Positions 19,225-19,595 of a DNA stretch of 64,000 nucleotides are shown in pieces. A program made the position numbers and the translations under genes. The notes under the pieces are model-generated. The model was not told where the DNA came from and searched no databases. It saw nothing but the letters and a program-made list of their open reading frames with translations. Each line of letters begins with the position of its first letter. Position 1 is the stretch's first letter. The DNA is from Escherichia coli. Its GTDB lineage: Bacteria > Pseudomonadota > Gammaproteobacteria > Enterobacterales > Enterobacteriaceae. Location of the stretch: NCBI RefSeq assembly GCF_024700885.2, contig NZ_CP117016.1; one strand, 5' to 3'.

Positions 19225-19345
19225 AGATCTCCTGCAAGGTTTTCCCTGAGCAAATTTGCCAGACAGAGTAATCCAGCAAATCGTCCGGGGAAACCTTACC
19301 TGTCGCAAACTGCGACTGATTGGTTAATTGTCGAACATTTAATCG

Positions 19346-19360
19346 ACTGAAACGCTTCAG
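19346..19360. promoter_or_regulatory. putative Cra (FruR) operator upstream of epd-pgk-fbaA
   Basis: palindrome CTGAAACGCTTCAG resembling the Cra box. Confidence 0.5.
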
Positions 19361-19595
19361 CTAGGATAAGCGAAACGTGGAATAAAAGGAATGATTGTCC
19401 AGTCAAAGAAGACAATTATCTGACTTACGTCACGTTTTCAGCCCCGCCACTGTGGAATTTATTCCACTTTGCAGAATCACGAATAAGCGTAGCAAAATCT
19501 TTTCGTTGTGCCGTCACAAACCCTGACTTATATCAGAATATGACTGATGCAGCGTCGATATTATCCGCAATACGTCCGAGTTTCGGAGTACTCCA

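Follow-up and report, generated by a model that had tools for sequence, protein, structure and literature searches.

A bidirectional control region between epd and the lmiA-ECF operon of Escherichia coli, with a probably incidental palindrome

In the 64,000-nucleotide stretch of Escherichia coli DNA analysed in this study (referred to as the window), epd is separated by a short intergenic region from a divergently oriented operon encoding a DUF296 protein and ECF components, and this intergenic region carries a Cra-like box as well as a perfect palindrome. The arrangement raises the question of whether a single region serves both transcription units, what the palindrome contributes to it and whether the operon represents an acquired island. 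The sequence between the two start codons (positions 19225-19595) is a bidirectional control region, from which epd-pgk-fbaA is read leftward and lmiA-ECF, corresponding to O-island 119 (OI-119) of EHEC, rightward. The reading as a whole, i.e. a shared control region of which nearly all parts can be assigned, a palindrome that is incidental and an operon that is ancestral, is considered probable. Both transcription start sites (TSSs), Cra occupancy, CRP activation and the PhoP footprint were taken from published work and mapped onto the window, and the conservation patterns, the K-12 junction and the ancestry of the operon were established in the present analysis. On the epd side, the Cra operator and P0 belong to the well-established regulation of K-12, and mapping of the lmiA promoter dates from 2020.

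The intergenic region and its mapped promoters

The genes which flank and make up the two transcription units are as follows.

18205-19224, minus strand: epd (erythrose-4-phosphate dehydrogenase) coding sequence, 339 aa (Pfam Gp_dh_N/Gp_dh_C; PGAP annotation of strain 118UI)
19596-20027, plus strand: lmiA (z4267 orthologue), PPC/DUF296 protein, 143 aa (Pfam PCC hit, 3.3e-27; annotation)
20050-20628, plus strand: ECF S component (Pfam, annotation)
20629-21336, plus strand: ECF T component (Pfam, annotation)
21324-22001 and 21995-22672, plus strand: two ECF ATPases (Pfam, annotation)

The initial annotation had delimited the control region as 19309-19595 (287 bp). Its right edge is correct, as the lmiA reading frame begins at 19596, but its left edge is not, since the ATG of epd is located at 19224; the intergenic region consequently spans 19225-19595 (371 bp), and position 19309 falls within the 5' UTR of epd, 19308 being merely the first in-frame TTG of a mechanically called epd reading frame. 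Strain 118UI, which is 100% identical to the window over 19150-19700, is annotated with a 339-aa epd product starting at the ATG at window position 19224, and the Pfam domains of the protein begin at residue 3 of this 339-aa form. The DUF296 gene was recognized as lmiA of OI-119 through PMC7667037. At the far end of the operon, the last ECF ATPase gene overlaps the 3' end of the convergent yggC gene by 29 bp.

The regulatory features assigned to the two mapped promoters are listed below.

19225-19356, minus strand: epd 5' UTR, 132 nt, with the P0 TSS at 19356 (K-12 TSS, PMC2759082; K-12 sequence identity)
19347-19360, no strand: Cra (FruR) operator CTGAAACGCTTCAG, +9 to -4 of epd P0 (ChIP-exo motif match; conservation)
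19363-19391, minus strand: epd P0 core promoter, with putative hexamers at -10 (TATCCT, 19363-19368) and at a weak -35 (TTCCTT, 19386-19391) (published TSS and promoter string)
19419-19434, no strand: CRP-like site TCTGA-N6-TCACG (TCTGACTTACGTCACG), centred at -70.5 from the epd TSS (consensus match, conservation)
19422-19438, plus strand: published 'PhoP box' GACTTACGTCACGTTTT (PMC7667037, mapped here)
19424-19442, plus strand: PhoP DNase I footprint CTTACGTCACGTTTTCAGC, -82 to -64 of lmiA P1 (PMC7667037, mapped here)
19469-19506, plus strand: lmiA P1, with -35 TTGCAG at 19469-19474, -10 TAGCAAAAT at 19490-19498 and TSS T at 19506 (PMC7667037, mapped here)

In K-12, the TSS of epd P0 lies 132 nt upstream of the ATG, and the promoter string is given as ...CATTCCTTTTATTCCACGTTTCGCTTATCCTAGCTGAA (PMC2759082). 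This string maps to window positions 19393-19356 on the minus strand, which places the TSS at 19356, and between the epd ATG and about 19393 the window shows 100% identity to K-12-type genomes. The K-12 promoter, which is known to be Cra-repressed and CRP-activated (Bardey et al. 2005, cited in PMC2759082; PMC5888115), thus shares with the window its sequence from the ATG through the Cra box, -10 and -35, the 132-nt TSS distance, the position of the Cra box over the TSS and the presence of a CRP-type site upstream at a class I distance. It differs in that its CRP-like site, TCTGACTCACATCACA, is nearer to the consensus than TCTGACTTACGTCACG of the window, and in that the two haplotypes diverge beyond about -90; the next gene beyond epd in K-12 is yggC, at a distance of 284 bp, whereas in the window it is the divergent lmiA operon.

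The Cra/FruR-like box, previously noted at 19346-19360, corresponds to the real Cra operator of epd, although it starts one base further on, at 19347. Cra occupancy as determined by ChIP-exo in K-12 covers the -10 and TSS of epd, with ctgaAtCGaTtcag as the derived motif (PMC5888115). Of the 14 positions of this motif, the box matches 12, among them the four of high information content (A5, C7, G8 and T10), and it represents a dyad of the 14-16-bp type (ctgaAtCGaTtcag / gcTGAAtCGaTTCAgc), including the central CG. Its position fits repression, as it spans the mapped epd TSS and is identical in sequence to the Cra-occupied site of K-12. Conservation was assessed in an alignment of the whole intergenic region from 13 taxa which retain epd-lmiA synteny, the loci being derived from named genomes and assemblies. 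The P0 core promoter forms a near-invariant block in this alignment. The Cra box is invariant in 12 of the 13 taxa and is present as its exact reverse complement in Trabulsiella; because it is either invariant or flipped across all 13, its conservation lies far beyond chance. Cra would be predicted to bind CTGAAACGCTTCAG across the epd start site and to cause repression, and in the present strain such binding and repression would be sensitive to fructose-1-phosphate and fructose-1,6-bisphosphate, as is expected of a Cra operator.

Upstream of P0, the CRP-like site matches 8 of 10 positions of TGTGA-N6-TCACA, and its centre at -70.5 lies close to one of the spacings of class I sites (-61.5, -71.5, -82.5 or -92.5). 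Its TGA-N6-TCAC core is retained in 13/13 taxa. CRP is reported to activate epd as a class I activator from a position upstream of the core promoter (PMC5888115), and we infer that the 16-mer at 19419-19434 represents this experimental CRP site of epd P0, in which case cAMP-CRP would exert class I activation of epd from around -70.5.

On the opposite side, OI-119 of EHEC EDL933 was described as a 3.12 kb unit of five genes (z4267-z4271), the DUF296 protein encoded by z4267 (lmiA) being an activator of LEE1/ler (PMC7667037). By primer extension in EDL933, lmiA transcription was found to start at a T 90 nt ahead of the ATG (Liu et al. 2020; PMC7667037). The window contains the same locus with every published element at its published distance, the offsets being reproduced exactly, including -82 to -64 for the footprint, and EDL933 is identical to the window over the 40-mer at 19450-19489, which comprises the palindrome and the -35. 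The -10 of lmiA P1 is also given as the hexamer CAAAAT. A consensus promoter scan over 19150-19700 found no sigma-70 site, a result that is uninformative as both mapped promoters are weak and activator-dependent.

Binding of PhoP at lmiA was demonstrated by EMSA, ChIP-qPCR and DNase I footprinting, with 2.5-5 uM protein used for the footprint (PMC7667037). The footprint lies within sequence shared with K-12 and overlaps the CRP-like site by 11-13 bp, from which it follows that a stretch of ~20 bp may be regarded as a common activator platform. According to this model, PhoP would activate lmiA P1 from the same K-12-shared stretch that serves epd, so that the sequence would act as activator platform for both transcription units. 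The earlier suggestion that the 287-bp region may serve both units is borne out by this layout, with the PhoP-protected activator site of lmiA situated in the K-12-shared part and, immediately past it, the lmiA promoter (PMC7667037). Caution is nevertheless warranted as to how much PhoP matters physiologically at 19424-19442, because the box is weak, the conservation is of the CRP type and the footprint was obtained with 2.5-5 uM protein. The PhoP box (GACTTA-CGTCA-CGTTTT) matches (T/G)GTTTA-N5-(T/G)GTTTA at 8 of 12 positions by the present count, the paper itself counting 3 mismatches, and the conserved columns at this box follow the CRP pattern (TGA-N6-TCAC) and not the PhoP repeats in the 13-taxon alignment. 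As the lmiA sequence protected by PhoP and the epd CRP site are essentially one, competition between Mg2+ and carbon signalling for the same DNA may take place within this bidirectional promoter. The main text of PMC7667037 does not mention the overlap between the PhoP and epd CRP sites, the palindrome or the conserved lmiA-proximal module described below.

The palindrome upstream of lmiA P1

Two further features are located between the activator platform and the -35 of lmiA P1 or overlap the latter.

19452-19467, no strand: palindrome GTGGAAT-TT-ATTCCAC (GTGGAATTTATTCCAC), -54 to -39 of lmiA P1 and -96 to -111 of epd P0
19459-19477, plus strand: bipartite conserved block TTATTCC-N7/8-GAAT, which contains the right arm of the palindrome and overlaps the lmiA P1 -35 (13-taxon alignment)

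The palindrome is located exactly where the initial annotation had placed it, between the CRP/PhoP platform and the -35 of lmiA P1 and directly beside the latter, with its centre at -46.5 relative to lmiA P1 and at -103.5 relative to epd P0. By itself it has no significance beyond chance: perfect inverted repeats with arms of >=7 bp and a spacer of <=10 bp were encountered in 20% of Markov-1 simulations of the 371-bp region (7% if the spacer was restricted to <=2), and their actual density in the window amounts to 0.78 per 371 bp.

The 13-taxon alignment revealed that the element earlier singled out as a perfect palindrome is not a conserved dyad, its right arm alone being conserved. The right arm is kept as TTTATTCCA(C/T) across the alignment, whereas the left arm (19452-19458) and the preceding 10 bp show no conservation outside Escherichia; its equivalents include CTGCAAT in Salmonella, GCGGCAT in K. 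oxytoca, GCCCGAT in C. koseri, TGCCATT in Leclercia and GCGGGTT in Silvania. Within Escherichia, single substitutions break the dyad in E. albertii (ATTTCAC) and in E. whittamii and Escherichia sp. E1V33 (both TTGGAAT), while a minority E. coli allele, T19453C (GCGGAAT; strains MSB2_1A and JA0265), breaks the left arm. K-12-type genomes contain a degenerate relative, TGTGGGAAGCTTTATTCCAG, in which the right arm is kept (TTTATTCCAG) and the left arm is disrupted. With regard to the possibility, considered at the outset, that both motifs might occur unchanged in K-12, the palindrome differs there and the Cra box is identical. The 40-mer around the palindrome is identical in 3149/3330 operon-bearing E. 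coli genomes (roughly 95%); high identity within a species would be expected in any case and is hardly informative on constraint.

The palindrome is therefore most likely an incidental, lineage-specific dyad, as opposed to an operator to which a dimeric regulator is dedicated. Its right arm would form part of a conserved promoter-upstream block, and its left arm would be lineage-specific sequence which in Escherichia happens to be complementary by coincidence.

An alternative, regarded as unlikely, is that the palindrome region serves lmiA P1 as a non-specific upstream element, be it an UP-like A/T tract or an enlargement of the contact surface between PhoP and RNA polymerase, in which case the AATTTATT core would matter and the symmetry would not. 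The location at -54 to -39, adjoining the mapped -35, the A/T-rich nature of the conserved right half (TTTATTCC) and the binding of PhoP immediately upstream (-82 to -64) are consistent with such a role. Conservation, however, extends to TTCC and GAAT, which resembles a specific site more than an A/T tract, and the region presumably represents a poor match to the UP-element consensus, which also counts against this explanation.

A second alternative, which is considered improbable, holds that the palindrome is a genuine Escherichia-specific operator, of LacI/GalR-type or another HTH dimer, acting at -46.5 of lmiA P1 and/or -103.5 of epd P0. The earlier remark that the sequence matches no consensus is not quite accurate, as it agrees with 10 of the 12 specified positions of the GalR/GalS operator, the central CG being absent. 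The GalR/GalS consensus is GTGNAANC.GNTTNCAC, galOE reads GTGTAAACGATTCCAC, and all listed ChIP-verified GalR sites keep the CG (PMC5110547). Like these operators, the palindrome is a 16-bp hyphenated dyad (7-2-7, with perfect arms), and it matches all ten outer positions (GTGNAAN...NTTNCAC), thereby providing two good GalR-type half-sites; its right half, TATTCCAC, differs from that of galOE, GATTCCAC, at the central base alone. The dyad is also perfect in most operon-bearing E. coli, and a location just upstream of the -35 would suit either activation or repression. Conversely, the central C.G of GalR/GalS operators at positions 8 and 9 is replaced by T.T, position 9 being one of four whose mutation inactivates gal operators, and the epd-lmiA locus has no link to galactose metabolism. 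Membership of the GalR/GalS operators was consequently rejected: the outer positions fit, but the essential central CG is missing. A dimeric operator in a broader sense is further disfavoured by a left arm that is conserved in no other genus, by the disruption of one arm in four Escherichia lineages, by the chance probability of about 0.2 for a dyad of this class and by a pull-down with a lmiA promoter fragment from which only PhoP was recovered (PMC7667037). The sole similar dyad within the window, GTGGGAT-TG-ATCCCAC at 10972-10987, is located inside the coding sequence of the frameshifted srsR pseudogene and was dismissed as a regulon partner. If the palindrome were nonetheless an operator, it would provide an extra input to the virulence regulator LmiA, and possibly to epd, which is absent in Salmonella, Klebsiella and Citrobacter. 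Autoregulation by LmiA at this position was likewise rejected, as the only published LmiA footprint, TTAAAGTCGTTTGTTAA, bears no resemblance to GTGGAATTTATTCCAC.

A conserved module proximal to lmiA

A newly observed set of conserved elements is situated between lmiA P1 and the lmiA start codon.

19523-19536, no strand: dyad CTGAC-TTAT-ATCAG (CTGAT-N4-ATCAG in most genera), predicted class II CRP/FNR-family site (15/15 taxa)
19559-19564, plus strand: TATTAT, predicted -10 of a second, proximal lmiA promoter with a predicted TSS at about 19571-19572 (TATNAT position-invariant in 15 taxa)
19572-19589, plus strand: ACGTCCGAG-N-TCGGAGT, small hairpin/dyad that includes the lmiA Shine-Dalgarno sequence GGAG (invariant in 15 taxa)

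For these elements, the comparison was made across 15 taxa, a set that includes Serratia and Buttiauxella, in which the operon resides in a different neighbourhood. The same layout was observed in 15/15 taxa: the dyad, exactly 22 unconserved nt, TATNAT, a further 6-8 nt and ACGTCCGAG-N-TCGGAG. Conserved hexamers separated by unconserved spacers of fixed length are indicative of a promoter, and not of an RNA structure. The 5-bp stem of the ACGTCCGAG hairpin never varies, which renders covariation uninformative either way.

The FNR consensus is TTGAT-N4-ATCAA, and class II FNR/CRP promoters have their site centred at -41.5. The TGA-N6-TCA core located 22 nt upstream of TATNAT would correspond to such a centre, at about -41.5, and agreement of the dyad with the FNR consensus amounts to 8 of 10 positions in most genera, compared with 7 of 10 in the window. 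Its discriminating outer base is C in nearly all taxa, as opposed to T for FNR or G for CRP, and the sole mapped lmiA TSS is that of P1, 65 nt upstream of the predicted one. In Serratia, the right half of the dyad constitutes a perfect CRP half-site. A CRP-family gene located 1.5 kb from the Serratia operon received no NCBIfam assignment.

On balance, a second lmiA promoter near 19571-19572 that depends on a member of the CRP/FNR family is put forward tentatively, with the odds slightly against it. As an alternative, the dyad at 19523-19536 may serve as an operator at +17 to +30 of the P1 transcript. According to PMC11481890, the SalComMac compendium suggests anaerobic activation of the Salmonella operon, for which the paper also cites a thesis that proposes Co2+ import; the literature on Salmonella STM3071-3073 also gives an intragenic sigma-54 site in STM3072. 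A second CRP/FNR-dependent promoter, if true, would explain the anaerobic induction reported in Salmonella.

Two other assignments of this segment were discarded. The dyad at 19523-19536 shares CTGA-N6-TCAG with the Cra box and, judged by eye, fails at all four high-information positions of the Cra motif, arguing against Cra binding. A riboswitch or structured RNA leader for the ECF operon is contradicted by Rfam, stability and covariation analyses alike: the leader gave no relevant Rfam match at E <= 10, the 90-nt P1 leader folds no better than shuffled sequences (z = -0.09), and the covariation term was -0.11 kcal/mol, with only invariant mini-hairpins being predicted.

Ancestry of the operon and the K-12 haplotype

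The part of the window that distinguishes it from K-12-type genomes is the following.

19446-22674, no strand: segment absent from K-12-type genomes, which contain instead 94 bp without a BLAST match (BLAST comparison)

The checks suggested alongside the first description of this region, i.e. a comparison with K-12, 5'-end mapping and evidence of Cra binding, are for the most part already covered by published work, the K-12 comparison being part of the original O-island definition. PMC7667037 treats OI-119 as a horizontally acquired island, and the initial annotation had likewise referred to the operon as an island. The present data contradict this view, as the operon is syntenic across Enterobacteriaceae. 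It is ancestral in enterobacteria, where it is syntenic with epd, its absence from the K-12 lineage being due to loss or replacement. lmiA-ECF adjoins epd in the same orientation in S. enterica, S. bongori, C. koseri, K. oxytoca, Enterobacter, Leclercia, two Silvania species, Atlantibacter and Trabulsiella, as well as in E. albertii and E. whittamii. The summary tally of epd-lmiA synteny amounts to 10 non-Escherichia genera. In Serratia, Buttiauxella, Proteus and Limnobaculum, the lmiA-ECF operon is located elsewhere in the genome and not beside epd.

Signatures of an island were also sought at the operon itself, and no tRNA genes, flanking direct repeats, low GC content or mobility gene among the five ORFs were found; the GC content of the operon is 55.2%, compared with 50.8% for the window. 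Synteny in related genera together with the missing island signatures rules out a horizontally acquired genomic island. O-island 119 would thus represent an ancestral enterobacterial operon that was lost by K-12, and not an acquired virulence island, so that its role is to be reinterpreted.

Among complete E. coli genomes, 3329/5426 carry the segment. The differences between the window and K-12 cluster around the indel: identity is 70-90% over 19385-19445 and falls to 60-66% in the terminal 200 bp of yggC (22675-22875), compared with 96-100% elsewhere. The C-terminus of YggC encoded by the window shares 51/65 residues with that of Atlantibacter and 44/65 with that of S. bongori, whereas the K-12 C-terminus shares 37 and 39, respectively. 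Because the YggC C-terminus of the window is nearer to these outgroups than that of K-12, the K-12 haplotype is the derived one, and it constitutes a replacement by diverged sequence as opposed to a clean excision. This replacement would have removed lmiA P1 along with everything downstream of TTTATTCCA.

That the palindrome acted as a structural hot spot, causing or marking the K-12-type deletion/replacement, is very improbable. It is true that BLAST detects no similarity to K-12 beyond 19445 and that the right arm is precisely where the final collinear match (TGTGG-AA--TTTATTCCA) stops. Strong recombination, however, calls for a longer substrate than a 7-bp dyad, the right junction has no matching repeats, the diverged replacement that makes up the K-12 haplotype runs from about 19394 to about 22875 and is not a clean excision, and an independent deletion in Escherichia sp. 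E1V33 has quite different end points. The latter deletion is in-frame-like, extends from about 19678 to 22433 and leaves the whole intergenic region in place.

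A predicted second promoter proximal to lmiA

The region upstream of the lmiA-ECF operon was shown to carry a conserved module proximal to lmiA, which is organised as follows:

19523-19589, conserved module: dyad CTGAT-N4-ATCAG, exactly 22 nt, TATNAT, 6-8 nt, ACGTCCGAG-N-TCGGAG

The terminal element, ACGTCCGAG-N-TCGGAG, within which the SD is located, is invariant. The module was detected in all 15 taxa listed for it; two of these, Serratia and Buttiauxella, have the operon at a location that does not adjoin epd. Based on its sequence organisation, this module is predicted to represent a second lmiA-ECF promoter of the class II CRP/FNR type, with the published TSS lying ~65 nt further upstream. 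The prediction agrees with the anaerobic induction reported for the Salmonella operon (PMC11481890).

The CRP-like site of epd P0 and its surroundings

The published PhoP footprint on the lmiA promoter and its associated 'PhoP box' (PMC7667037) share 11-13 bp with the conserved CRP-like site of the leftward epd promoter, P0 (19419-19442). Conservation across genera at this position follows the pattern of a CRP site (TGA-N6-TCAC) and not that of PhoP repeats. The two regulators may be in competition for this site, or the assignment to PhoP may have to be revisited.

The CRP/PhoP site is located between the arms of a 13-nt inverted repeat, AACGTGGAATAAA (19374-19386) and TTTATTCCACTTT (19458-19470), which are 92% complementary and separated by 71 nt (chance expectation roughly 0.04). 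Of these arms, the first falls within the spacer of epd P0 (-18 to -30) and the second represents the right arm of the palindrome GTGGAAT-TT-ATTCCAC (19452-19467), and the repeat core (GGAATAAA/TTTATTCC) is kept across most genera.

Ancestry and loss of the lmiA-ECF operon

The operon known in EHEC as 'O-island 119' is ancestral to the enterobacteria, and the K-12 haplotype (corresponding to window positions 19446-22674, with flanks 19385-19445 and 22675-22875) is a diverged replacement rather than a simple deletion. The 3' end of yggC exhibits only 60-66% identity between this haplotype and the window. A second, independent operon loss within Escherichia is represented by Escherichia sp. E1V33, in which an internal deletion (L026 4059-4082, equivalent to window ~19678-22433) joins the start of lmiA, up to codon ~27, to the 3'-terminal part of the final ATPase gene, leaving the entire promoter region intact.

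The K-12 FlhDC site identified by genomic SELEX and attributed to epd-pgk-fbaA (PMC9962212) was located within yggC, in the K-12-specific diverged block (2973-3016 of the K-12-type locus L002). No counterpart was found in the window with up to four mismatches allowed, and in operon-bearing strains this position would be >3 kb from epd.

ECF transporter genes and srsR

The ECF S component (20050-20628) matches the NCBIfam 'CD3073 family putative ECF transporter S component' at 136 bits, below the family cutoff of 180 bits; Co2+ has been proposed as the ECF substrate in a thesis, as cited by PMC11481890. The 3' end of the final ECF ATPase gene shares 29 bp (22644-22672) with that of yggC, which is convergent to it, and this overlap also occurs in C. 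koseri, S. bongori and Atlantibacter.

The LysR family gene srsR (ygfI; 10734-11629) is represented by two overlapping ORFs. In a genome whose sequence is identical to the window over 10700-11300, the gene carries the annotation of a frameshifted pseudogene. It encompasses a perfect 7-2-7 palindrome, GTGGGAT-TG-ATCCCAC (10972-10987).
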